Below are positions 18,496 to 33,865 of a stretch of DNA of 64,000 nt, piece by piece. Location: the IMG/VR virus record IMGVR_UViG_3300045141_000294; one strand, written 5' to 3'. The notes beneath the pieces were generated by a model. The model was not told the origin of the DNA and did not search any database. It saw only the letters and a list, made by a program, of their open reading frames with translations. The position numbers were made by a program, and so were the translations under genes. How positions within the stretch are numbered: the stretch's first letter is position 1; each line of letters opens with the position of its first letter. This DNA comes from a virus.

Positions 18496-18539
18496 ACAAG
18501 ATGTTTTCATGAATCTTGGCCCATGCCAGACTGTCACCC

Positions 18540-19277
18540 GTGACTGGACGTGGCGCATGGCCCAACAAGGGCACAGGCGGGACCCTGAACTTCGACCGGA
18601 CGGCTCCTGGGCCGTACTACGCCCTGGCAGCCGGGGACATGTTCCCGGTGGGCTCGGACAAGCACTCGACCGACATCAACATCCGGGCCGTGCACGCCGG
18701 GGTCTTCGCCATCCAGCGGGCTCTCAACCGGCGCTTCAAGGACGACATCAAGGTGACCGGCATCTTCGACGACCCCACCGCCGATGCGGTGATGAAGTTC
18801 CAGCGGGAGCGGATGACCGGCCAGGTGCCGTGGCCCGGGGTAGGCCCGGAGACCTCCCAGGCCCTGTTCAGCCCGGACATCAAGGCCCGCTGCAAGAAGT
18901 TGGGCTGGGCCGACCCGGCAGTGGTCTGCGGGGTGATCAAGAACGAGTCCAACTTCGACCCCGGCGCCGTGGGGTTCGTCGATGACTCCGACCTGGGGCT
19001 GGCCCAGATCAACGGCCCGGCCCACCCCGACAGCAGCGAGGGCGAGCGGCTACAGCCGATCTACTCGATCGACTTCGTGATCGGCTACCTGGCCAACGCC
19101 ACCAAGGCCCTGCGGGACGAGGACCTGGCCATCGCCTCCTACAACCTCGGCCTGGGCGGCGCCCGCACATGGGACAAGGCCGGGCGCCCCAACCCCTACG
19201 CCCCGGCGCCGGGAGCCCCGGCCCGGGACGTAGAGGCCTACATCCAGCGGATCAAGACGGCCTGCCGGACTACCTAG
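18540..19277 (+). CDS. peptidoglycan-binding domain + soluble lytic transglycosylase (GH23-like)
   Basis: AIQRALN..GIFDDPT..AVMKFQ..GPET (PG-binding); IKNESNF..GLAQIN..ASYNLG (SLT); likely leaderless GTG at 18540 (ORF track starts at 18516). Confidence 0.8.
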   Translation: MTGRGAWPNKGTGGTLNFDRTAPGPYYALAAGDMFPVGSDKHSTDINIRAVHAGVFAIQRALNRRFKDDIKVTGIFDDPTADAVMKFQRERMTGQVPWPGVGPETSQALFSPDIKARCKKLGWADPAVVCGVIKNESNFDPGAVGFVDDSDLGLAQINGPAHPDSSEGERLQPIYSIDFVIGYLANATKALRDEDLAIASYNLGLGGARTWDKAGRPNPYAPAPGAPARDVEAYIQRIKTACRTT

Positions 19278-21065: not shown

Positions 21066-24000
21066 TCATGAAGAGCCCAGCGAGAAGTTCTCCCACTCCC
21101 CTGCGATGACGCACCAGACCTCATCGACATCCCAGGTCATGCGTTCGATCTTCGGGAGGAAGCGAACGTGGTACTTCGAGTACGAGAGGGTCAGATGTGG
21201 GGTGAACTCGTGGTCGGTGCGCGGTGAGTAGCCGCCCTTCTCCAGGGCATGGATCAGCCGCTCGTGCATCAGGTTGACCCCGGGGATCGCCACGCTGGCC
21301 CACATGACGTGCTGGCCGTCCTCGTCGGCCTTGAGGAAGGTCCCGGCGCCCTGGGTGGTGGCGCTCAGCGGCATCTCGGCCTCGGCCCAGGCCGCCACCA
21401 CCTCGGGCAGGTCGCGCAGTTGGGCCTTGGTCATCTCGGTGGTCTCGCCCAGGTAGGCCAGGGTGATGTGCAGGCTGTCGACGGGCTCGGTGCCGTCCTC
21501 CTGCACCAGGGCCTCGGCCACCTTCGGCGGTGGCACCAGGGCCACCATCACGCCCTTGGAGTGGTCGGTGTCCTTGGCAGCCTGGTGCTGCTGAGGGAGC
21601 GAGGGAGCATGCGGTGCGAGCCGGAACTCCTTGGGCCACTCCGGCTTGCTCGGTGGGATGACCTCGGTCACCGGGTGGTAGTCCATGCAGGAGATGCACA
21701 TCCCGACAAGCGACCCATCGGGCTCTCGACTCATGGCGCGGGGCAGGTGGCCGGTGCCGTCGCAGACCTCCTCCTTGGCGGCGGTGTGCTGCTGGGGGAG
21801 GCTCTTCGAGCCCACGGAGAGCACGTCGCTGGGTGCGCACATCTCCGGGGTACGGCCCTCATGGGTACCTCGCCACTCCTCCGGGATGGACTTGGGCGGC
21901 GGGTTGCCGCGTGCTCCCTTGACCTCGGAGTCGTACATCCGGCACACCCGCAGCGGGACGTGGGACCAGCCCGCCCGCTCGGCTGCGGTGAGCCGGTGGT
22001 TGCCCTCGCCCAGGGATGCCACGTTCTCCTCGTTGTGGTGCAGCAGCATCAGCGGGTCAGTCATCCCCCGGCCATCGCGGAGTTGGCTGGCGATCTCGTC
22101 GACCTTCTGCTCCGAGCCCGCGTGCTGCACCCCGGAGTGCTCCCGGAACCTCTTGGCCACCTCGATCGGCACCCACTCGGCGTGCGGGTAGCCGTCCCAG
22201 CCGGACAGGTCGTCACCGGGGCTGTAGCCGGGCCTGGTGGCCTGCCTCTCGGCATGCTCCCTGACCCGTTGCTGGTACTCGGCATCGTCGTCCTTGGCGC
22301 CGAGCCGGTGCTGGAAGGTCGTCGAGTGGGCAGGTGTACCGGCCTCCTCGGGGCTCACCGCATCACGCCAGGAGCGCCCGTCACCGGACAGCCGGTCGGA
22401 GTGCTGGATGCCCGGGGTGATCTCCAGAGCCCTGCGGAACATCTCGGCCCCCAACCCTCGGCGCCGGTGCTCGGAGGCGACCTCGGCCTTGTCGATCTTC
22501 GGGCCGAACGAGGGGTTGTCCTTGTACGGGCCGTCGCCGGGGTCCCACCACGACAGACGACCGATCTGAGTGCCCTCCAGGAAGGCGTTGAGGGAGTGGT
22601 GCCCGCTGGGCCTCCCCTCGCTGTAGGGGTCCCTGGGAGGGCTGTGCCGGTACTCCACCGGGTCCGGGTCGGGGCGATCCTTGACCCCCTCCTTGCCCTT
22701 CAACTGGTCGTCGATGTGCCGCTCGAAGGTGCCCGGGGCGTAGTGCGGGGTGGTCTTGTCGATGTGGTTCATGAACCTGCCCCGGACCTCGGGGTCGTTG
22801 AGCATCTTCACGGTGCCGGGAGGGTTGGAGGGGTCGGAGGCGAGCAGGTCCATGAACTGCTCCATGGCGTCCCGGAAGTCCAGGTCGTCATCTTCCTTGG
22901 CGCCCTCGTGCCGCAACTCGTCCTCGCTGTGGAAGGGCAACTCCGGCTGGCGCCCGTGGTGCTCCTCGGCATGGCTGATGTCCGGGCCGTTGTAGCCCCA
23001 CTCGTCAAAGGCGTCCTGGCTCCAGTTGACGTGCTTGGCGGGCACCGTGGCCTTGAGGATGCGGTAGTCGTCGTCCTCCGGGACGTTCGACATGCCGTGC
23101 TGCTGGGCATAGCCGGGATGCAGGGTCACCCAGTCACCGGAGTGGATGTCGGTGACGTGGTGGGGGACCGCCCGGTAGATGCTGACCGGGGCCTCGGGGT
23201 TGCCCCGGGCCTTCTTCATCTGCTGGAAGGCCCCCATGGCGTTCTCGTAGCCCCGCTTGGCGTCCCGCCACTCGATCGAGCAGTGGTAACGGGACACCGA
23301 GCCGGGAGGCCGGGGGCCGTTGTGGTACTCGGGGTGCTCGTAGAGGTCATCGGGAAGTTCGTGCAGAGCGGGCTCCTCCGGCCCGGCTGGTCGATGGCTA
23401 CCCCGCCAGTCGTACTCGGCGAGGTGCTGGAGCAGGGAGCCCTCGTGCATCCAGTCGTCGTCGTGGTCGGAGTGCTCGCACCAGGACGGCTGGACCTTCT
23501 CGGCACCAGGCACGAACTTGTGGACGTCGCAGGGCCAGTGCCCGACCTTCTTGACCTTCTGGATCACCGGCTCGTCGTCGTGACCGAAGCCGGTCCACTT
23601 CCCCTGCACCAGGTGGGCTCGACGGTCCGGTGAGGTGTTGCGGCCCCTCCGGCAGTCTTCGAGGTGCCCCTGGAGCATGTCGTGGGTGTCGTCGTGCATC
23701 TCGGTGTTCTCGGGGTCGTGCTCCCACAGGTCGCAGTGCTCGGGGCCTCCACAGCCCTCGTAGTGCTCCCCCCGGTCCATGTCGTAGTCGGGGTCCATCG
23801 GCTGGCCGTGCTTGTCCAGGTCGTAGACGCTGACGCCCTCCTCACGATGCCCGGTGATGTGGTTCATCGAGCGCTCGTCGGCGGGCCAGTCCCCGAACCG
23901 GACGTAGGTCGGGTGGGGGTGGTCGAAGCCGAACGCCCGGTTGTGCTCCTGGGAGTTCGAGGCCATCCCGAAGTGCCGGAGCAGCGAGACACGCTGGTCG

Positions 24001-25181
24001 ATGTGGGCCTGCTCGAAGTTCCATCGGTCTCGCACCTTCGGGTCCTGCCACTTCGGATGACGTCCCAGGTCCTCAACCGACTTGACCTTGCTGGAACGGA
24101 TGGCCATCGAGGTGCTGCCCTTGTCCTCGGCCTCGTTGCGGTACAGATGCGCGTCGTAGTCTCCACAGTTGGCCTGGAAGTCGAGACTCCCGGCGCCCCT
24201 GCCGTACTTGTCGTCGTCCTGGTCGGCATGGACGTAGGGACAGATGCGCGTCCCCGGGGCGATTCGGACCCGATGCAGCCGCGAGTGTGGAATATGGAGC
24301 GAGAACTCGTCTCCGGCATCCCACTCGTCCGGGTCGATCCGATCCAGGGCGGCCTGCTTCGTGCCGATGTGCAGCCAGCCGGTACCGGACCAGTTGATCT
24401 TGTCGTGGAGCCTGCGGCCATTGTCGATGACTCCAGCGTGGTACCAGTCCTGCTGGGTCGCCGGGTCAGGAGCAGCAAAGTGCTGGAGCAGCGAGGAGTG
24501 GTGGCTCAACTGCTCGGAGTACTGGCCGGGCTCGTCGAGGTCGTGGCCGCAGTGGGCACACCCACCCCAGGACGGGTCGTCCTTGCTGTGCGGGTACAGG
24601 CACTCGTGGCAGACATCGCCCTCCTCGCACGGCTCGGAGGCATGGTGCACCGAGTGGATGGTGATGTCCTCGGGGTGGAAGGCGATCGCGCACTCGTGCA
24701 GGTGTGAGCCCTCGTACTCGTTGCCGTAGGTGATCCCGTCATGGCCCTTGCTCTCCAGGTGCTCCCGGAAGCCCTGGGCGATCTCCTTGACGTGCGGGTG
24801 GTAGCGCAACTGGGAGGCCGGGTCGTGGCTGCCCTCGGGGGACAGCCCGTGGATGTCGTGGCCGTTGTCGTCCGCCCAGTTGCGGGCCGCCCGGTCGAGG
24901 TCCTTCTCGGAGTAGTAGTGCTTGGGGTTCTTGGCGGCCAGGCCGACGTGGTAGACCGCCCCGGAGTGCCCGAAGGCGATCTGGGCAGCGGTGTCGTGCT
25001 CGCTGGAGAAGTGGCTGCCCAGATGGCAGTTCCAGTGCTTGGGGTCCCCGGTGCCCTCCCGCTCCCGCACGTCCGGGTCGAACTTCTCGAAGGGCTCCAT
25101 GGTGCTGCTGCCGTGGAACCAGGGCTCCTCGATGCCAGCGGTCTTCTGCGGGAGGTAGGACCAGCCGTACCACTGGGTCAT
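21066..25181 (-). CDS. polyvalent protein 2 (1371 aa): 4 ART-like + GNAT + ParB-like + 2H phosphodiesterase domains
   Basis: WFHGS/GSHF/GHDGITYGNEYE; WYHAG/HIGTKQAALDR/YRNEAEDKGS; YVRFG/GVSVY/DEP; IYRAVP/GDWVT/EWGY; V..EHRRRGLG; EGNHRL; HITL...HLTL. Confidence 0.8.
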   Translation of the reverse strand: MTQWYGWSYLPQKTAGIEEPWFHGSSTMEPFEKFDPDVREREGTGDPKHWNCHLGSHFSSEHDTAAQIAFGHSGAVYHVGLAAKNPKHYYSEKDLDRAARNWADDNGHDIHGLSPEGSHDPASQLRYHPHVKEIAQGFREHLESKGHDGITYGNEYEGSHLHECAIAFHPEDITIHSVHHASEPCEEGDVCHECLYPHSKDDPSWGGCAHCGHDLDEPGQYSEQLSHHSSLLQHFAAPDPATQQDWYHAGVIDNGRRLHDKINWSGTGWLHIGTKQAALDRIDPDEWDAGDEFSLHIPHSRLHRVRIAPGTRICPYVHADQDDDKYGRGAGSLDFQANCGDYDAHLYRNEAEDKGSTSMAIRSSKVKSVEDLGRHPKWQDPKVRDRWNFEQAHIDQRVSLLRHFGMASNSQEHNRAFGFDHPHPTYVRFGDWPADERSMNHITGHREEGVSVYDLDKHGQPMDPDYDMDRGEHYEGCGGPEHCDLWEHDPENTEMHDDTHDMLQGHLEDCRRGRNTSPDRRAHLVQGKWTGFGHDDEPVIQKVKKVGHWPCDVHKFVPGAEKVQPSWCEHSDHDDDWMHEGSLLQHLAEYDWRGSHRPAGPEEPALHELPDDLYEHPEYHNGPRPPGSVSRYHCSIEWRDAKRGYENAMGAFQQMKKARGNPEAPVSIYRAVPHHVTDIHSGDWVTLHPGYAQQHGMSNVPEDDDYRILKATVPAKHVNWSQDAFDEWGYNGPDISHAEEHHGRQPELPFHSEDELRHEGAKEDDDLDFRDAMEQFMDLLASDPSNPPGTVKMLNDPEVRGRFMNHIDKTTPHYAPGTFERHIDDQLKGKEGVKDRPDPDPVEYRHSPPRDPYSEGRPSGHHSLNAFLEGTQIGRLSWWDPGDGPYKDNPSFGPKIDKAEVASEHRRRGLGAEMFRRALEITPGIQHSDRLSGDGRSWRDAVSPEEAGTPAHSTTFQHRLGAKDDDAEYQQRVREHAERQATRPGYSPGDDLSGWDGYPHAEWVPIEVAKRFREHSGVQHAGSEQKVDEIASQLRDGRGMTDPLMLLHHNEENVASLGEGNHRLTAAERAGWSHVPLRVCRMYDSEVKGARGNPPPKSIPEEWRGTHEGRTPEMCAPSDVLSVGSKSLPQQHTAAKEEVCDGTGHLPRAMSREPDGSLVGMCISCMDYHPVTEVIPPSKPEWPKEFRLAPHAPSLPQQHQAAKDTDHSKGVMVALVPPPKVAEALVQEDGTEPVDSLHITLAYLGETTEMTKAQLRDLPEVVAAWAEAEMPLSATTQGAGTFLKADEDGQHVMWASVAIPGVNLMHERLIHALEKGGYSPRTDHEFTPHLTLSYSKYHVRFLPKIERMTWDVDEVWCVIAGEWENFSLGSS

Positions 25182-28100
25182 GACGCACCCACCATCGGTG
25201 GGTGGTGGTACTCGTGGGTCCAGTCGACCAGCCGACCCACCGGGTCACTCGGGTGGTACTCCAGGTACTTCCACAGCGCGTTGGAGGGGTCCTTCCAGCC
25301 CTGCCCCTGGGCCGAGAAGGCGTGCCTACGGTCGTCGTGCAACTGCTCGTAGAGCATGGCGCCACGTCGAGCCCGGTCCACCGGGTCCTTGATCTGGCCG
25401 ATGGCGTCGACCAGGGCCAGGTAGGCCTCGGCCTGGTCCCACAGGCTCTCGTCGAAGGACCCCGGCCCCCACTCACTGGACACCTGGGGAGGCTTGACCA
25501 CCCAGCGGTCGGTGTCGACCAGGTAGGCGCTGTAGGGCTTGATGTCACGGATGTTCCAACTGGCCGGGTTGGAGTAGGCGGTGACGTGCCACTCGTGGCC
25601 ATCCCAGGGCGCCAGGTAGTGCTCGTCGTTGTAGGACCTGCGGAACAGCCCGGTGATCTTCGCGCTGATCTGGTCATCGGTCAGGTCGGCGTCATCGGGA
25701 TGGGCCTTGCGGAACTTCCGGTAGTTGACCCCGACCAATAGGTCCAGGTCCCGGTTGCCCGGGTTCCACCAGTACGACGCCGCCCCTCCGGCGATGTAGT
25801 TGCGGCACCAGTCCCGCCAATCCGGGTAGACGCCGCCCACGGCCTGGTCCAGGCGGCCCATGACCACCTTCTTGACCCGGGGCCGCAGGTGCTGGCCCTG
25901 GGTCCACAGGGAGGGCTCCAGGATGCCCTTGGTGGCCGAGAAGATGCCCTGCTTCGGCAACCACGGGTGCTCCTTGGTGTAGCCGGGCAGCAGGGCGGCC
26001 TCGGCATGGCGCAGCACCTCGCACGGCAGGTGGGAGAGCCCGGCGTCGTCGGCTGCGTGGATGCGGTGGTTGCCGTTGAGGACCCGGCCATCGAGGAGCC
26101 GCACATGGTCGTCGTCGTCGTCCACGTCCTCCGCGTTGTAGCCGTGCTGGCTCATCTGCCGGGCGTACTCGGCGACCTTGGCCTCGTCCACCACGTCGCT
26201 GTCGCGGGGCAGGGCCATCTGGAGCAGGTCGGCCACCGGGATGTCCTGGGTGCGACGTCGAGCGGCCTGGTGGTACTTCCACTCGCCCTTGCCGGTGTTG
26301 CCCTTGTCCGAGCGGCCCCAGCGCTCCACCGAGCCGTTGTTGTGGTAGCGGTTCACCTCGTCCAGGAAGTCGTCGGGCTCGTCGTGGATCGCCGCGATGT
26401 GGGCATGGTCGACCCGGCCCGGTCGGCTGCCGGGCTTGACGAAGTAGGACTCCCGGTTCTCGTCGTAGTCGTGGACCGGGTGCATCCGGTCGACGTGGGT
26501 GACCTTGATGGTCTTCGGGTCGAAGGCGATCGCGCAGTAGTGCTGGTTGGGTCCCTCGACGCCGTTGCCGTAGGTGATCCCGTCGTGGCCGTCGTAGCGC
26601 AGTTGGCTGACGTAGGCCCCGGCCATCTCGTGCTGCCGGGGGTGCCACTGGAAGTGCGCCTCGATCGCGCTGTGGGTCTGACGTGGTGAGGCTCCTCGGG
26701 CGATCCGCTGGTTGATGCCCTCCCGGGTGGCGCCGGAGCCGTACTGCCACTGCATGTCGCCTTCGTGCTTCTCGTCGTGGAAGCCGGAGCCCGCGCCGAC
26801 GGTCTTCCAGACGTGCCGGAGCAGCGACTCCTCGGAGTCGAAGTGGATCGGGTTCTTCATCTTCAACTGGGCATGGAAGACCTGGCCGTCCTGAGCCCGG
26901 TGCGGCCCGGCGAAGGAGTGGGCCACCGCGTGCAGGGCCGAGAAGTGCACCCCCAGCAACTTGTTCATCTGCGGGCCACCGGCGCCGTTGCCCGCTGGCC
27001 GATGACCCTCGCGGATCGCCTGGGGGTTCAGGTCCTCGTGGTCCCCCAGCGTGCCGTGGAACCACTCGTTGTGCTCCTCGTGGTACGGGTTCGGGAGGAC
27101 CCCGCTGCTGTCCTGCTTGGCCTGCACCCGCAGCCCGGTCTTCTCCTGGCTCTGGGGCTCCTCGGGCTCGTGCGGGGACTCGGTGCCACCGATGTGCAGG
27201 GCTGAGCCGTCGGAGGTGCGCCACTCGCCCAGGGCCGAGACCCGGTAGCCCCTGGCGCCCGGCTTGGGGTGCACCCGCAGGATCGAGAACTGGCTGGGGT
27301 GGGTCTCGGAGAAGGCCTTGGGCGAGTTCATGATGAAGCCCGGGTCCATCTCACCGGTGCCGAAGTGCTCACGCATCGCGGCGTGGTACTTGTAGTGGCT
27401 GCTGGCGAAGTCCAACTTCTCGTCGTCGTTCATCGGCACCGAGTGCCGGTGGTAGATGCGGCCCTTGGGGGCGTCGAAGTGACCACCGTCCAGGACCGGC
27501 TCGGCGTCGGGGTGCTTCTTCTTGATCTCGTCGGTGGTGTCCATCATCACGCTGTCCAGGACACGGCGCCCCTTGAGGCCCTCGCGGAGCCGGATCGGCA
27601 GCGTGTCGCCGTCCTTCCAGTCCTTACCACCGCCGTACTGGCCACCGACGACGTGATGCAGGTAGCCGCCCTGATGGGCCTCGTCCAGCATGTCCTGGAT
27701 GCTCGTCTTGCCGGTCACCACCGCGTGGTACTCGTGCAGCGCCCGATGGATGTGCCGGGCCACCTCGGGGTCATGGGTCAGCGAGATGGTGTCGGAGTCG
27801 CCGCCGCCCAGGCCCGAGCCGCCGTGGTTCATGTTGAGTTCGTCGCGGCTCTTGAGCGAGCCTGCGGCCAGCACCCCGGACTTGTTGGTCGTGGTGTGCC
27901 ACAGGGTCTGCGGCAGATGCTCCCAGGACAGTCCGTGATGCTCGGTGTCGTGGTAGTAGGCCCCCTGGCTGGTCTGGTCGTGGCCATGGCCCTTGTAGCC
28001 GTTGTTCCAGGCCTCCTGGGGCTCCAGGTCCCCTCGGGACAAGGCACGCCGGACCTCCCGGTCCCAGCGATGACCGTGCTCCCGAGCCCGTTCGGCCTCC

Positions 28101-29206
28101 GAGAAGTCGTCGGGGTCCAGGGCCTGGAGGCGCCGGTGCTCGTCCATGTCGATGCCCGGCTTCGGCTGCTTGTACAGCGGCTCCCCGGAGCCGAAGTGCT
28201 GGAGCAGGGCGGTCCTCATCGGGCCGAGGTGCTCCTTGTCCGGACCCGTCCAGTGGTAGCCCTTCCCCGGGAAGTAGTCGGGGCTGACGACCTCATCCCC
28301 GTGGCGAGCGCTGGTCTCCCCCTGATCGGAGTTCAGGTGCTCCTTGGACTCGTGCAGCCACTCCCAGCGGGAGTGGCTGATCTGGTGGTCGTCGAACGGG
28401 ATCGCGCACCGGTGGCCCTTGGGCGGCTCGTACTCGTTGCCGTAGGTCACCCCGTCGTGGCCCTGGCTCCGGAGGTGCTCCTTGAATCCCTCGACGATGT
28501 GCTCCCGCTCCGGGTGCAGGGTCATGTACAGGTCCAGGTGCGGGCCGGAGGCGTCCTCCTTGCCCTCCGGACGCCGGTCGATGTCGTCGAGGGCACGGCG
28601 CCCCTGCTCGTCGGTGTGGTTGTCGACGTACTGCATGTGCTCGTGGTCAGGGATCTCGGCGTAGTGCCCACCTGAGTCCAGGTGGTCCTCCCACTTGTCC
28701 TGACTCCGGGCCTTGTCGTCCAGGTAGTGGTGGCCGTTCTCGTGCGCCCAGGTGATGGCGTCGCGGGACATGTCGAACTCGGAGTCGTAGTGCTTGGGGT
28801 TGGCCATGTGCAGTTGGGAGTGCGAGATCCGCGACAACGGGTGGTGGCCGTGCCCGCTGAACACATGGGCCACCTCCGGGTCGGAGGTGAAGTGCACGCC
28901 GAGATCGGTGTTCCAGTGCTTGTCGGCGTGCATCCCGTACTCGTCGTGGAACCGGTCCGGGGTCTGCACCCGGCCCCCGGGGTCATGCGGTGGGTGCAGG
29001 GCCGGGGAGGTCAGGTGGTGGGTGGTCCCCACGTCGTAGGCCGGTTCGTCATCACCGACGTACTCGCCGTACTCGTCGTGGAACTCACCGCTGGTGCCGT
29101 GGAACCAGTGCTTGTACCGGGTCTTGGGGTTGCGGTACGGGGCGGGCATGGCGGCAGCCGTCTTCGCACCCAGGGCGAAGAACTCCGCGAGCAGGGGCAT
29201 CGGCAC
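25178..29206 (-). CDS. polyvalent protein 1 (1342 aa): 3 ART-like + ParB-like + Pol-beta nucleotidyltransferase domains
   Basis: Two WFHGT/GVHF/GHDG.TYGN..E domains; LWHTTT..LKSR..ISLT..GEW; NGNHRIHAA; GGAASY..DLDL. Confidence 0.8.
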   Translation of the reverse strand: MPMPLLAEFFALGAKTAAAMPAPYRNPKTRYKHWFHGTSGEFHDEYGEYVGDDEPAYDVGTTHHLTSPALHPPHDPGGRVQTPDRFHDEYGMHADKHWNTDLGVHFTSDPEVAHVFSGHGHHPLSRISHSQLHMANPKHYDSEFDMSRDAITWAHENGHHYLDDKARSQDKWEDHLDSGGHYAEIPDHEHMQYVDNHTDEQGRRALDDIDRRPEGKEDASGPHLDLYMTLHPEREHIVEGFKEHLRSQGHDGVTYGNEYEPPKGHRCAIPFDDHQISHSRWEWLHESKEHLNSDQGETSARHGDEVVSPDYFPGKGYHWTGPDKEHLGPMRTALLQHFGSGEPLYKQPKPGIDMDEHRRLQALDPDDFSEAERAREHGHRWDREVRRALSRGDLEPQEAWNNGYKGHGHDQTSQGAYYHDTEHHGLSWEHLPQTLWHTTTNKSGVLAAGSLKSRDELNMNHGGSGLGGGDSDTISLTHDPEVARHIHRALHEYHAVVTGKTSIQDMLDEAHQGGYLHHVVGGQYGGGKDWKDGDTLPIRLREGLKGRRVLDSVMMDTTDEIKKKHPDAEPVLDGGHFDAPKGRIYHRHSVPMNDDEKLDFASSHYKYHAAMREHFGTGEMDPGFIMNSPKAFSETHPSQFSILRVHPKPGARGYRVSALGEWRTSDGSALHIGGTESPHEPEEPQSQEKTGLRVQAKQDSSGVLPNPYHEEHNEWFHGTLGDHEDLNPQAIREGHRPAGNGAGGPQMNKLLGVHFSALHAVAHSFAGPHRAQDGQVFHAQLKMKNPIHFDSEESLLRHVWKTVGAGSGFHDEKHEGDMQWQYGSGATREGINQRIARGASPRQTHSAIEAHFQWHPRQHEMAGAYVSQLRYDGHDGITYGNGVEGPNQHYCAIAFDPKTIKVTHVDRMHPVHDYDENRESYFVKPGSRPGRVDHAHIAAIHDEPDDFLDEVNRYHNNGSVERWGRSDKGNTGKGEWKYHQAARRRTQDIPVADLLQMALPRDSDVVDEAKVAEYARQMSQHGYNAEDVDDDDDHVRLLDGRVLNGNHRIHAADDAGLSHLPCEVLRHAEAALLPGYTKEHPWLPKQGIFSATKGILEPSLWTQGQHLRPRVKKVVMGRLDQAVGGVYPDWRDWCRNYIAGGAASYWWNPGNRDLDLLVGVNYRKFRKAHPDDADLTDDQISAKITGLFRRSYNDEHYLAPWDGHEWHVTAYSNPASWNIRDIKPYSAYLVDTDRWVVKPPQVSSEWGPGSFDESLWDQAEAYLALVDAIGQIKDPVDRARRGAMLYEQLHDDRRHAFSAQGQGWKDPSNALWKYLEYHPSDPVGRLVDWTHEYHHPPMVGAS

Positions 29207-29689: not shown

Positions 29690-31762
29690 TCAGTTGCGTC
29701 CTCGGGGACGGCCCCGCTGGTTGCGGCTGGGTGTCATGTCCAGGCGTCCCCGAGCCCTCCCGAACGACGACAGGGCAGCGATCCGCTCGTCCGAGTCATG
29801 GTCGGAGTACATCTCCCGGAACGGCGCCACACCGCCCTCCATGGCCGCCCCTGGCCGGAACGAGGACAGTTCGGTGTGCAGGAAGTTGTTGATCTGCTCG
29901 CCGATCAGGACATGGATGCACTCGGTCATGCAGTCCGCGATGTCCTTGGACTGCACCGGGCCGGAGTCGGGGTGGTCGACCCTGCCGTTGACCAGTTGCA
30001 GGAACCGCAGTTCCAACTCGGCCCGCTCCAGGTACGGCGCATGCACCAGGTCCAGGTTGATCGCGGCCTTGGCGTTCTCCTTGACCTGCCAGTCGTAGGC
30101 CCGGGTGGTGGTCTTCTCGAAGACCTGGACCCGCTTGGGCAGCCGGTTGGCGGGCTCCCGGAGTTTCTTCTGCATCCGCTGGATCGAGGACGTGGAGTTG
30201 TACTGGTCGTAGGTGAACTCACCGGGCATGAACGGCTGGATCACGTTGGCCCACAGGTACTCGTCGACATCCTCGTAGTCGATGATCCCGTCCGGGAAGT
30301 CGGCAGGGTCGAAGGCACCGATCAGGTCGAAGACGCAGTGCGGGCGCTCCTCGTCGTCGTACTCGGCGTGAGCCAGGGCGAAGCCGAACTTGTCGTTGAC
30401 CTTGGACGGGTCGGCGTGGCCCTTGTAGGTGGTGGTGAGCAGCCCCCGGGACTGGAAGGTGATCTCGGGCGGGCCGTACTTCTCCGGGCGCCCGAGCCAC
30501 GGCATGAAGATGTTCTTGACCTTCTGCTCGTTCAGGTAGGCGTCCAGGACAGCCGCCCACTTGGCCCGGCGCTCCACCTTGAACGTCTCCGGGTTGGCCC
30601 GCTCCTCTCGCGCCATCTGGGCGTCATAGACCGAGATGGCACCCCGCAGGTGAGCGAACCCAGGCAGCGGCTCCGGGCTCTCGCCCTCGGGGTCGTACTC
30701 GCCCAGGTCGCCCAGGAAGCCCTCGGGCAGCAGTGGGAAGTCCGGGTCCCCGGTGCGCTCCCAGTCCAGGTAGATGTCCCAGGAGGCCAATTGCAGGGAG
30801 AGCATGTCGGGGTAGGAGAAGGTGCCGTCCGGCTCCTTCTCGTTGGCCAGCAGCCAGTTGTCGTAGAACTGGCCGAGCATCTGCCAGGGGCTCGACGGCT
30901 CGACGATGAAGGCGTCCTTGCCGAACTGGTCGAGAGACGGCTTGGCGGCGCCGTAGACCTCAGAGGCACTGCGGTTGGCGCCGGAGGACACGACGTGGGC
31001 CATCTCGTCGTAGCCCTGCATGAACGAGGTCGGACCACGACCGGCCATCATCGTGGACTCGCGGGGCACGATCGCGAAGGTGGCCTGGTCCCGCTCGGAC
31101 CTGATCCCGCGCTGGACCTGGCGCCGCATCCGCACGAAGTCGTTGGGGGCGTAGATGGTCAGTTTCTCGGTGTGGTCCTGGTTGATGTAGGGCAGGAAGC
31201 ACTCGCTGCCGGAGATCACGTTCACCAGGTCGCCGTACAGGTTGGCCTTGGCCTGGTCCCGCTTGCCCGCGAACATCAGGGCGACCAGTTGCTTGTCCCG
31301 GTCGATCCCGTAGTAGGCCTGGGGGTCGCCCTTGGCCATGTAGCACCACAGCACGTAGGTCATGCACGCTGCCGCGATGTGGCCCTTGCCGCCACGGCGA
31401 CCGGCCACCAGCAGCACCTCGCGGAACCAGCGGTGACCCAGCGCCCGCAGCAGCCGCATCTTCTCCAGCAGGCCGGGCGCCAGGCCCTCGGTGCCGTTGG
31501 AGGCGACGAAGGCGTACTCCCACTCCTCGATGACGGCGTAGTCGTAGTCGGTGAACAGGTCCTCGCGCAGGAAGATGACCTTCACCAGGGTGGCCTGGCG
31601 CGGGTACAGGTGCCCACGGTTCAGCCAGCGTTGGCCGTAGACGAACGTGATCGGGTCCGGCACCTCGATGCCGGTGAACAACTGGTGGAACGACCCGACG
31701 CCGACGGGCAAGGGGTTGGGTGCCTGGGCAGCAACCCCTCGCAACGCCGTGTTGACGCTCAT
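29690..31762 (-). CDS. terL: terminase large subunit
   Basis: Walker A-like VAGRRGGKG, Walker B GYDE, nuclease GHADPSKVNDKFG and SKDIAD motifs. Confidence 0.9.
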   Translation of the reverse strand: MSVNTALRGVAAQAPNPLPVGVGSFHQLFTGIEVPDPITFVYGQRWLNRGHLYPRQATLVKVIFLREDLFTDYDYAVIEEWEYAFVASNGTEGLAPGLLEKMRLLRALGHRWFREVLLVAGRRGGKGHIAAACMTYVLWCYMAKGDPQAYYGIDRDKQLVALMFAGKRDQAKANLYGDLVNVISGSECFLPYINQDHTEKLTIYAPNDFVRMRRQVQRGIRSERDQATFAIVPRESTMMAGRGPTSFMQGYDEMAHVVSSGANRSASEVYGAAKPSLDQFGKDAFIVEPSSPWQMLGQFYDNWLLANEKEPDGTFSYPDMLSLQLASWDIYLDWERTGDPDFPLLPEGFLGDLGEYDPEGESPEPLPGFAHLRGAISVYDAQMAREERANPETFKVERRAKWAAVLDAYLNEQKVKNIFMPWLGRPEKYGPPEITFQSRGLLTTTYKGHADPSKVNDKFGFALAHAEYDDEERPHCVFDLIGAFDPADFPDGIIDYEDVDEYLWANVIQPFMPGEFTYDQYNSTSSIQRMQKKLREPANRLPKRVQVFEKTTTRAYDWQVKENAKAAINLDLVHAPYLERAELELRFLQLVNGRVDHPDSGPVQSKDIADCMTECIHVLIGEQINNFLHTELSSFRPGAAMEGGVAPFREMYSDHDSDERIAALSSFGRARGRLDMTPSRNQRGRPRGRN

Positions 31763-31763
31763 C

Positions 31764-32159
31764 TCAGTGACCGTGCTCCTGGTCCTTGAACGCCTCGGGG
31801 TTGGACTTGATCACGCCGCCATCCCCAATATCGAGGAGATCGTGGGTGATCTCGTGCACCTTCTGATCGTGGTCGAAGGCACCGGCCTCGATCCGGTCGC
31901 GGATCACGATCTCGGGGATCAGGGTGCCCTCGACGTTGGTCTCGTACCAGTTCACCACGACCATGAACCCGAGGTCCTCGAACCGCTCCCGGACCTCCCG
32001 GGTGAACGCGGCGTAGTCGACCCGACCGTCATGGGCCTTGGTGCTCAGCCTCTCCAGCAGTCGCTCGATCTCGATGATCTCGGAGTCGTGTATCTCCACA
32101 CGGGCGGTGAGACCGGGAGCGTTGGAGCCCCCGGCCTCACCCAGGATCGGAATGTTCAT
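31764..32159 (-). CDS. hypothetical protein upstream of the terminase
   Basis: Coupled ORF. Confidence 0.7.
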   Translation of the reverse strand: MNIPILGEAGGSNAPGLTARVEIHDSEIIEIERLLERLSTKAHDGRVDYAAFTREVRERFEDLGFMVVVNWYETNVEGTLIPEIVIRDRIEAGAFDHDQKVHEITHDLLDIGDGGVIKSNPEAFKDQEHGH

Positions 32160-32177
32160 GCGGTCAGGCTCTCACGA

Positions 32178-33188
32178 TCACGAAAGCCTCGAATGGCAGG
32201 TCGAGCACCTCTGAGCGTGGTCGTCGACCAGCCAGCCACCGGCCCGCTCCAGCCGACGCCGGGCGTTGTGCTGGAGGCGCATCTCGGGGTCGTTGGCCTG
32301 GTTGGTGATGTGGTTCACCAGGTCGAACATGGTCGGGTGGTTGCCCTCGAAGGCGATGGAGAGGGTGTCCTCCATGTTGCCGATGGTCCGGTCGGGCAGC
32401 CCGGCCTCACGAGCCATACGCCGGAAGTGGCCGGTGTAGTCGGGGTCGGCCTGGACGTTGCGGAGGTCGTAGAAGGCCGCGATGTCGGACTCCACCCGGT
32501 CGAAGGACTCACCGATGATCTTCTCGAACTCGATCAGGATGGTGGCCGCGTCGGCCCCCCGGGCGTCGATCTTGAGGCCGAGGTCGGGGACCTCCATCCC
32601 GTTGGTGCAGGCCAGTCGGTACATGATCGGCTGAGCCCAGGGCGCCAGGTTCTGCTTGCGGTTCTGGCCGATCCGGACCCCGCCCTTGGTCAGGTCGCCG
32701 ACCTTGGCGTCGCCGCCGATGCCTCGGTCGAAGGCGTCCGGCACGATCGCGTCGAGCCGGAACTCGTCGGCGTTGGTCCACCAGTCGAGGACCGAGGACT
32801 CGGCAGGCATGACGTTGAGGAGGCACTCGACCATCGGCGCCACCTCCATCCGGGTCAGGTTGGCCAGGTAGGCCTCCTCGATCCCGTCCTCGGTGTACTT
32901 GACCACCAGCGGCTTGTCCTCGGACCGGGCGATCCGGTGCTCCAGGATGAACTGCTGCTCGTCGGCGGGGAGGCGCTCCAGGAACTTGTAGGGCACCTCG
33001 TAGAACTGGGCCAGGGCCTGGAGGCCTGCCTCGGTGGCGGGCACCTCGGCACCGACCAGGTCGATCACATGGTCGCGAGTGAGGTCGACCTTGACCTTGG
33101 TGGAGGAGTCGGACCAGGTGTCCCGGTCGTCGCTGGCGGCATCGAGCACCTCGGTGAGGGTGGGAAAGGTGGTGTCGCGGAAGAACAT
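32178..33188 (-). CDS. DUF932-like protein
   Basis: YRLACTNGM motif and typical size; RBS ggagagcc. Confidence 0.7.
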   Translation of the reverse strand: MFFRDTTFPTLTEVLDAASDDRDTWSDSSTKVKVDLTRDHVIDLVGAEVPATEAGLQALAQFYEVPYKFLERLPADEQQFILEHRIARSEDKPLVVKYTEDGIEEAYLANLTRMEVAPMVECLLNVMPAESSVLDWWTNADEFRLDAIVPDAFDRGIGGDAKVGDLTKGGVRIGQNRKQNLAPWAQPIMYRLACTNGMEVPDLGLKIDARGADAATILIEFEKIIGESFDRVESDIAAFYDLRNVQADPDYTGHFRRMAREAGLPDRTIGNMEDTLSIAFEGNHPTMFDLVNHITNQANDPEMRLQHNARRRLERAGGWLVDDHAQRCSTCHSRLS

Positions 33189-33232
33189 GGCTCTCCTAAG
33201 GAAACTTGCGGATGGAGAGCCCACCGTAACAT

Positions 33233-33865
33233 TTATTCATCTGGTGTGGCTACGGTTTCCTCGACCTCACCTGAAACAATCTCATGCTCGCGCTGCTTGG
33301 CCATCAGCGCCTTGAGCAGCGGGTTGCTGGTCAGCCTCCGGGCGAACACGTCCCACTGCTCAAGGCTCATCACCTGCTGAGCCTCCTCGAAGTAGATGAA
33401 CATCGACTGCTGGTAGGCCTCGGTGTCGTAGCCCTCGGTCGAGGTCGACTCGATCCGGTGCCTGAGCCCCATCGCGGTCAGCAGGTCGCCCATGCCGGGC
33501 TCGATCTCCCCGGCCATCAGCCGCTCTTTGCCCCGGTTGATCACCAGGTCGGTGAGGGTGATGTAGTCGGTCAGGTCATCCTCGCCCGCGATCGCCGCAC
33601 CCAGGTCCTCGGCACGCTTCTCGATGATCCGGCGCCGGGCCTGGATCGGTTGCGGCAGATGCCCGTTCGTGACGTGGTTGGCGATGGCCTGGTAGCCGGG
33701 GGGCGGGAACCGCCCGGTCGGCAGTTCCTCCACCTGCTCGGCGATGGCCCGGTACGAGCGGCCCATCAGCAGTTCGTTCTCGATGAACATCCGGTGTGGG
33801 CTCTGGCAGGTGTGGCAGCCCGATGAGGTTCTGACCGGGTAGTCCCGTCCACCGATCCGGATCAT
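33233..33865 (-). CDS. Zn/HTH DNA-binding protein, possible terminase small subunit
   Basis: CHTC..HR..IE..L..GRSYRAIA; position near terL; start could be GTG 33922. Confidence 0.5.
   Translation of the reverse strand: MIRIGGRDYPVRTSSGCHTCQSPHRMFIENELLMGRSYRAIAEQVEELPTGRFPPPGYQAIANHVTNGHLPQPIQARRRIIEKRAEDLGAAIAGEDDLTDYITLTDLVINRGKERLMAGEIEPGMGDLLTAMGLRHRIESTSTEGYDTEAYQQSMFIYFEEAQQVMSLEQWDVFARRLTSNPLLKALMAKQREHEIVSGEVEETVATPDE

Follow-up and report, generated by a model that had tools for sequence, protein, structure and literature searches.

Polyvalent proteins were described by Iyer, Burroughs, Anand, de Souza and Aravind (2017, PMC5512222) as polypeptides of 2–15 unrelated effector domains, encoded by a phage with portal–terminase packaging or by a conjugative element; delivery with the DNA and release of the domains by peptidases were predicted, embedded peptidases were invoked (zincin-like metallopeptidases; a C-terminal assemblin-like domain), and the word "linker" is absent from that paper. 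In T4, the ADP-ribosyltransferase Alt and the internal proteins carry leaders of 7–10 residues that are cut by gp21, which also processes itself (PMC9026906); SPN3US gp245 cuts at A-X-E and cleaves itself (PMC10052503); the Prp motif MLxx(D/N)LQ(F/L)F'A(S/H)KK is cut between F and A in N-terminal leaders of 13–14 residues (PMC9405229, PMC5744158). Here, two adjacent giant open reading frames (ORFs) of the virus record IMGVR_UViG_3300045141_000294 are described together with a short peptide that recurs in both; "window" denotes the whole stretch analysed, 64,000 nucleotides (nt) in length. The two ORFs are:

25178–29206, minus strand: P0001, the upstream polyvalent protein, 1342 amino acids (aa), likely start at the ATG of residue 3
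21066–25181, minus strand: P0002, the downstream polyvalent protein, 1371 aa

Judged from their sequences, both are phage polyvalent proteins, i.e., chains of host-modifying enzymes, and the source phage is an uncultured, actinobacterial one. Five modules were delimited in P0001 (two ART-PolyVal-like, a third ART/DarT-like, one ParB-like and a nucleotidyltransferase-like C-terminus; its homologues carry PF18760, PF02195 and PF00583) and at least seven in P0002 (ART-like, two of unknown function, "ParB C-terminal", GNAT, ParB-like, zinc ribbon and 2H/LigT phosphoesterase). Matches of P0002: PF13563 (2H/LigT, C-terminal end), 8e-11; phrog_2579 ("ParB C-terminal"), 2.4e-28; GNAT, weak. The portal–terminase context of the polyvalent definition was found as a terminase-like gene in the window and a portal gene in c20, the complete relative described below.

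Results

Recurring peptide in P0001 and P0002: A short linear signal marks the module boundaries and the N-terminus of these proteins; it is non-random and conserved, and its forms are interchangeable. The strict expression [SA]L[LP][QR]Q?H, run on the six-frame translation of the window, gave 7 matches, 7/7 in-frame within P0001 and P0002, and none in the other window ORFs (19,128 residues); composition-preserving shuffles of both proteins (20,000 trials) averaged 0.023 matches, with at most 2 in any trial. A sequence-only reading of the same DNA had listed such peptides and called for a scan; every peptide quoted there was found, with the residue numbers as given, and the six-frame scan of the window left all matches in the two giant ORFs. 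Two motif types were mixed in that list, the aromatic L-L-Q/R-H-F-A/G and K-T-A-A / A-A-K; both are present at the N-terminus of P0001, MPLLAEFFALGAKTAAA. The content of histidine is very high in both giant proteins, 8.6% and 7.8% vs 3.0% in the other window ORFs. The sites are as follows (minus strand throughout; percentile, see below):

29150–29197, minus strand: PLLAEFFALGAKTAAA, P0001 aa 4–19, N-terminal leader; bipartite, aromatic motif followed by K-T-A-A; orthologues start with a like leader
28187–28210, minus strand: ALLQHFGS, P0001 aa 333–340, junction after the first ART domain; percentile 0.059
27116–27145, minus strand: EKTGLRVQAK, P0001 aa 688–697, junction before the second ART-PolyVal-like domain; percentile 0.015; MKTAAD or QAKEAS in relatives
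26807–26827, minus strand: SLLRHVW, P0001 aa 794–800, strict match inside an ART domain core; spanning fraction 1.0; absent from the earlier list
26261–26275, minus strand: YHQAA, P0001 aa 978–982, junction before the ParB-like domain; percentile 0.029; weak motif match
25994–26014, minus strand: LRHAEAA, P0001 aa 1065–1071, junction before the nucleotidyltransferase-like C-terminal domain; percentile 0.20; weak motif match
25134–25148, minus strand: QKTAG, P0002 aa 12–16, part of the N-terminal leader MTQWYGWSYLPQKTAG
24471–24494, minus strand: SLLQHFAA, P0002 aa 230–237, junction of the ART domain and zinc ribbon / domain B; percentile 0.12; BLAST segments to P0024 and P0027 start at P0002 residues 235–236
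23967–23987, minus strand: SLLRHFG, P0002 aa 399–405, junction of domains B and C; P0004 has this motif at its own start, immediately ahead of domain C
23418–23438, minus strand: SLLQHLA, P0002 aa 582–588, junction of domains C and D
22896–22916, minus strand: LRHEGAK, P0002 aa 756–762, junction after domain D; percentile 0.057
22293–22319, minus strand: TFQHRLGAK, P0002 aa 955–963, junction of the GNAT and ParB-like domains; percentile 0.25
21774–21803, minus strand: SLPQQHTAAK, P0002 aa 1127–1136, junction of the ParB-like domain and zinc ribbon; aligned with TQHKTAAQ in P0003
21573–21602, minus strand: SLPQQHQAAK, P0002 aa 1194–1203, junction before the 2H phosphoesterase; 14 BLAST segments start at residues 1192–1212

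The leader of P0002, of the type W-Y-A...K-T-A-A, recurs internally in P0003 at residue 238. SLLRHVW is probably not a junction signal.

Position relative to module boundaries: Each residue was given a spanning-fraction score: of the BLAST segments to relatives in its vicinity, the share that extends across it. On this measure, 11/11 listed internal sites are in the lowest quartile of their own protein (percentiles 0.015–0.25); across the family, the percentile averages 0.18 for internal aromatic-type matches (Wilcoxon p = 2e-4) and 0.17 for KTA[AGST] (p = 6e-11), which was found 44 times in the relatives against 4.0 expected (11-fold). The boundary bias was absent from permuted tetrapeptides, used as control. 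The score replaced two earlier statistics, break-point density and a coverage-trough rule, that were too noisy (p = 0.06, 0.10 and 0.27): orthologues with a colinear layout continue across the junctions, and coverage varies strongly from one domain to the next. The view that the motif sits mainly between domains is borne out, all 11 listed internal sites lying at homology break points and the sole strict exception, SLLRHVW, being one that had not been listed; the frequency at boundaries versus domain interiors, set beforehand as the comparison on which the idea could fail, came out as a bias towards boundaries.

Relatives of the two proteins: Two database searches gave ~55 giant proteins with shuffled domains, in which ART-PolyVal (PF18760), PF12120 / Arr-like ART, ParBc (PF02195), NUDIX (PF00293) and GNAT (PF00583) occur in varied orders. 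Two junction motifs were found across them, the aromatic L-(L/T)-x-(H/F)-F-(A/G) and K-T-A-(A/S). Matches to the aromatic expression start within the first 11 residues in 21 of 39 cases, a region holding <1% of positions (MSLMAHFAAV, MDLLEHFAAV, VTLTEHFAAA, MRLTQHFANA, MSLIERFAEH, MTQHIAEG); in P0001 orthologues (35–53% identity) the leader is kept in all, with the start M..LL.FF(A/R), and in some relatives, e.g., P0038 and P0032, the motif is at the C-terminus. Stand-alone single-domain versions are devoid of the leader.

A given junction may carry either form. Domain D is preceded by LLQHLA-EYDW (window), SKTAS-EDDDY, KTAA-EDYW, the tail of a protease, GIGKSAT-VNTDY (P0203), or the protein start, the last in six relatives, e.g., MSLIERFAEHDW and MTQHIAEGDY; the junction ALLQHFGSGEP of P0001 is KPKTASADP in P0039; and distant homologues of domain C have mostly (K/R)-T-A-A-like junctions. 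Both forms fit basic-x-(A/G), where the basic residue is H, K or R (H-F-A, K-T-A, H-T-A, R-L-G). Neither a fixed Glu near the core nor a fixed A-x-E site after the motif was found, the only acidic feature being a loose stretch at +5 to +7. The aromatic variant depends on the lineage: LLQHFA in the window and (T)ATAFF(R/A)QA in the c20 lineage, up to five copies per protein; in six frames of the 155.7 kb of c20 the latter occurs in 3 copies, two at polyvalent N-termini and one at a junction. Where a module array is fused in one relative and split in another, the break falls precisely on the motif; this would be expected if both arrangements yielded identical final products.

Internal translation starts were considered as the role of the motif and rejected, Met following the motif at only two junctions. 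The P0041 pattern search in IMG/VR gave no match. A distant relative, P0056 (metagenomic, 1914 aa), shares the ART/DarT-like domain of P0001 and combines a MuF head domain at its N-terminus with two HExxH boxes of zincin-like type, without junction motifs; this layout looks like an alternative route for cargo loading and processing.

Complete relative c20 and its head protease: c20 is a 155,672-bp contig in a 10.2-Mb Streptomyces assembly (G001); its ends overlap and it represents a complete phage, syntenic with the window over ~35 kb at 30–58% protein identity. It carries genes for a portal (phrog_2833, 5.7e-142), a cement protein, tail proteins and a capsid protein. The head protease is the N-terminal ~200 residues of the 944-aa protein P0164 (L009:6442–9276, minus strand; phrog_18299, 4.7e-24). 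The AlphaFold2 model of this domain has a predicted local distance difference test (pLDDT) of 80–96 over residues 23–201 and is closest to T4 gp21 (5jbl_A; Z 10.6, root-mean-square deviation 2.8 over 137 residues), with herpesvirus proteases next (Z 5.3–7.3). The catalytic serine is that of an invariant TSMG box. At least 675 relatives of the protease were found, many on contigs of 150–158 kb from Streptomyces assemblies; the whole proteins are 520–1650 aa long, with the gp21-fold protease as N-terminal domain and variable C-terminal cargo (DUF7178, ParB, NUDIX, GNAT and one named rubrerythrin). Some of this cargo has the ART-like domain and domain D in common with the window proteins, and in P0203 the protease tail GIGKSAT stands directly before domain D. 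A search for polyvalent genes on the protease-carrying IMG/VR contigs gave one weak match only.

Behind the catalytic domain, 118 distinct protease homologues have ADPTA[HYF]FLGVDx[RS]GL[GD]K[AT]A[SA]K, where conservation ends; the tail is predicted to be disordered (pLDDT <50, AlphaFold2). A K-T-A profile built from the polyvalent proteins alone matches this tail at 2 bits or more in 26/120 proteins vs 1 in shuffles. The K-T/A-A-A/S form of the motif is present at the protease's own presumed processing site in the relatives; for the aromatic form this does not hold. In the protease-fused cargo, KTA[AGST] was observed 38 times vs 4.9 expected, and aromatic junctions (SLLQHFG, LLQHFAS, TLTAHFAAS) 11 times vs 0 in shuffles.

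The protease proteins P0164–P0283 start with conserved M-L-K-(F/Y)-A-(S/T)-A, by eye loosely like the aromatic leader (K-F-A is shared). T4 gp21 has a site close to its own N-terminus. The elements of ~150–158 kb form a large conserved group and occur as single contigs in many Streptomyces and Kitasatospora assemblies, one of them annotated as a plasmid; they carry portal and tail genes and a capsid protein whose identity among 80 IMG/VR contigs is 76–99%. Such elements could be carrier-state phages or phage-plasmids.

Capsid, scaffold and models: The N-terminal box GLRGR(V/I/T)A(K/R)KSDDY of the capsid protein is conserved in relatives, and their scaffold protein keeps (S/A)KTADIANP; both are motif-like by eye. 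In the AlphaFold2 model of P0002 195–600, domain C is well folded and domain B has a pLDDT <50, so that the model is uninformative on the first junction; SLLRHF and SLLQHL are at helix ends outside the core of domain C (pLDDT ~54–76). A complex prediction for the P0260 protease domain and P0002 214–256 (score 0.11, mark 0.32) is evidence neither for nor against binding.

Gene neighbourhood

The G+C content of the window is 66–70% and the minus strand carries nearly all genes. P0001 ends and P0002 begins within a shared ATGA (window 25178–25181), a 4-nt overlap of stop and start codons that suggests translational coupling; the module boundary at this overlap is internal to one single protein in relatives. 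The neighbouring genes are:

29690–31762, minus strand: terminase-large-subunit-like protein, 690 aa, directly upstream of the pair; phrog_2, 8.7e-6; no Pfam match
18516–19277, plus strand: lysozyme-like, with SLT and peptidoglycan-binding domains (metagenome-contig gene call); the only clearly coding plus-strand ORF hereabouts, in the opposite orientation

Upstream of the polyvalent pair, the terminase-like gene is accompanied by a replication module (Pol III alpha-like polymerase, DnaB, helicase loader, primase, SSB, helicases). The counterpart of the terminase-like gene in c20 is at 31243–33423, minus strand, ~90 kb from the portal. No protease family was found among the 22 window proteins scanned with Pfam, the remaining window ORFs being outside that scan. 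Compared with 50,697 phage records, the 8.1-kb region of the pair gave no match by megablast and only single-domain matches of <60% identity by tblastn.

Discussion

The sequence-only reading had taken the peptide for either a prohead-protease site or a packaging tag. By analogy with T4 capsid targeting and gp21, the recurring peptide probably represents prohead-protease cut sites together with a leader, in a new motif. This is favoured because the signals occur at cargo starts, between modules and at the boundary of the protease and its own cargo, as in T4, SPN3US and phiKZ, and because fused and split arrays break at the motif. The polyproteins would enter the procapsid, possibly with the help of the N-terminal leader, as with the T4 capsid-targeting sequence; a prohead protease of the gp21/assemblin fold would cut each junction inside the capsid; and the single enzymes released by cutting would then be ejected with the DNA. 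Maturation and release sites of herpesvirus assemblin are (V/L/I)-X-A↓S, and cleavage after the small residue (A/G) is our guess by analogy with the A↓S of that enzyme. A gp21-fold protease is presumably encoded by the window's own phage as well.

Several observations weigh against cleavage by a head protease. The core is basic-x-(A/G), whereas Glu, and not Ala or Gly, precedes the cut in T4 (L/I-x-E) and with the known phage proteases of the gp21 type. The polyvalent genes adjoin the terminase-like gene in the replication region, outside the head module; protease, capsid and portal genes were not found in the 64-kb window, and the link to the protease comes from relatives at 30–58% identity, not from window genes. 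On the protease tail (at TAHFLGV) the aromatic profile does not outscore shuffles (median −1.9 bits); across the c20 genome, KTA[AGSTD] shows no enrichment (5 seen vs 4.4 expected); and neither motif profile scores on the N-terminal box of the capsid protein. The predicted helix-end placement of the two aromatic motifs would be equally in keeping with cutting and with a helix used for docking. The earlier proposal stands in part: motifs at the N-termini and junctions of ~55 relatives, K-T-A-(A/S) in the tail of the gp21-fold protease and SLLQHFG/KTAA in the protease-fused cargo speak for it, and the profiles are silent on the capsid N-terminus. For the capsid and scaffold proteins, where a scan for the motif had been suggested, the relatives show boxes similar by eye, the capsid N-terminus being unscored by both profiles.

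Each copy, possibly helical, might instead be an uncleaved docking or addressing peptide that binds scaffold, portal, capsid interior or a chaperone for head loading, the chains remaining intact. The selection that keeps the N-terminal leader, the C-terminal position of the motif in P0038 and P0032 and the two helix-end motifs of the AlphaFold2 model agree with docking, as does the scaffold of 80alpha, whose N-terminal peptide is needed for assembly and its cleavage is not (PMC5744158); but loading would need no more than one peptide per protein, and nearly every module boundary has a copy, the fused and split arrays break exactly at the motif, and the K-T-A type is located where gp21-type proteases process themselves (PMC10052503). 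We regard docking without cleavage as unlikely. Still less probable is that the copies are passive joints, a conserved linker or a microhomology that eases recombinational shuffling of modules and is read by no protein. Modules are heavily shuffled at these points and the copies share a 12–15-nt core, CTGCTCCAGCAC(TTC); against this, the DNA identity ends with the peptide (codons for Ser, Phe, Ala and Gly differ between copies), one and the same junction can hold either of two unrelated peptides, many proteins retain the motif immediately behind their start codon, and the protease tail has it again.

Cleavage by another, cytoplasmic protease (a Prp-like cysteine protease or a host protease), with the prohead protease uninvolved, is likewise very improbable. 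The core LQHF-A of SLLQHFAA does match the published Prp motif, the Prp site in L27 and 80alpha being LNLQ(F/H)F'A; but a search of G001, the Streptomyces assembly with c20 in it, for PF04327 (Peptidase_Prp) was negative at E <= 1, and the 22 window proteins scanned with Pfam include no protease family. Prp sites are N-terminal only, while most copies here are internal and have different flanks, and the K-T-A form has no Prp counterpart. To our knowledge, Actinobacteria lack the N-terminal extension of L27.

Returning to head-protease cleavage with a leader, a more specific form of it is conceivable but rather doubtful: a portable two-part code in the Streptomyces-type phages of ~150–160 kb, in which the aromatic leader would direct a protein to the procapsid and a gp21-fold protease, cutting after Ala as the herpesvirus enzymes do and not after Glu as in T4, would act on the basic-x-Ala/Gly site. 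Under such a code any module could be loaded into the head, chained or fused to the protease, and then released as a separate effector; in bacterial viruses it would correspond to the polyproteins of eukaryotic viruses, and it would offer a cargo-loading tag ready for use.

No paper describing this junction motif was found in a literature search. If the cleavage reading is correct, it explains how phage polyvalent proteins that have no peptidase become separate working enzymes; it adds a new specificity, basic-x-Ala/Gly instead of x-x-Glu, to the gp21-fold head proteases; and it provides a sequence rule from which the injected proteome, in its mature form, could be predicted for the ~155-kb Streptomyces phages, a large and widespread group that has hardly been studied. 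Foreign proteins might then be loaded into actinophage capsids with the short leader as their tag.

Comparison with known systems

Prp sites in L27 and in the 80alpha capsid and scaffold proteins (PMC9405229, PMC5744158) are near-identical, LQ(F/H)F'A, and likewise stand in a short N-terminal leader; the present system differs in that no Prp gene was found (PF04327, G001, E <= 1), that the motif is also internal, and that the hosts are Actinobacteria.

Herpesvirus assemblin resembles the sister-phage protease in fold (Z 5.3–7.3), in the invariant Ala followed by Ser/Ala and, presumably, in a self-cleavage site between protease and C-terminal extension; P3 is aliphatic there and basic here, the cargo is scaffold there and enzymes here, and the scissile bond assumed here is a guess.

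In phiKZ (gp175) and SPN3US (gp245) one short motif is cut repeatedly in several head proteins and the protease loses its own C-terminal propeptide (PMC10052503, PMC5694885), as would be the case here; those systems differ in their motif, (S/A/G)-X-E, in having substrates other than multi-enzyme polyproteins, and in their Gram-negative hosts.

The polyvalent proteins of PMC5512222 agree with P0001 and P0002 in having many effector domains (ART-PolyVal, ParB-like, GNAT, 2H, nucleotidyltransferase) in one tailed-phage polypeptide. They differ in that both window proteins are without a peptidase domain and carry a repeated short signal; and, unlike the C-terminal assemblin-like peptidases described there, the gp21-fold protease of the sister phages is N-terminal to its cargo.

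For T4 IPI–III and Alt (PMC9026906), targeting and cleavage were demonstrated, whereas here they are predicted from sequence, and the T4 cargo is single-module, whereas up to ~8 modules are chained here. The two systems share short N-terminal leaders on unrelated cargo, an ADP-ribosyltransferase included, a motif common to cargo and protease, and the gp21 fold.

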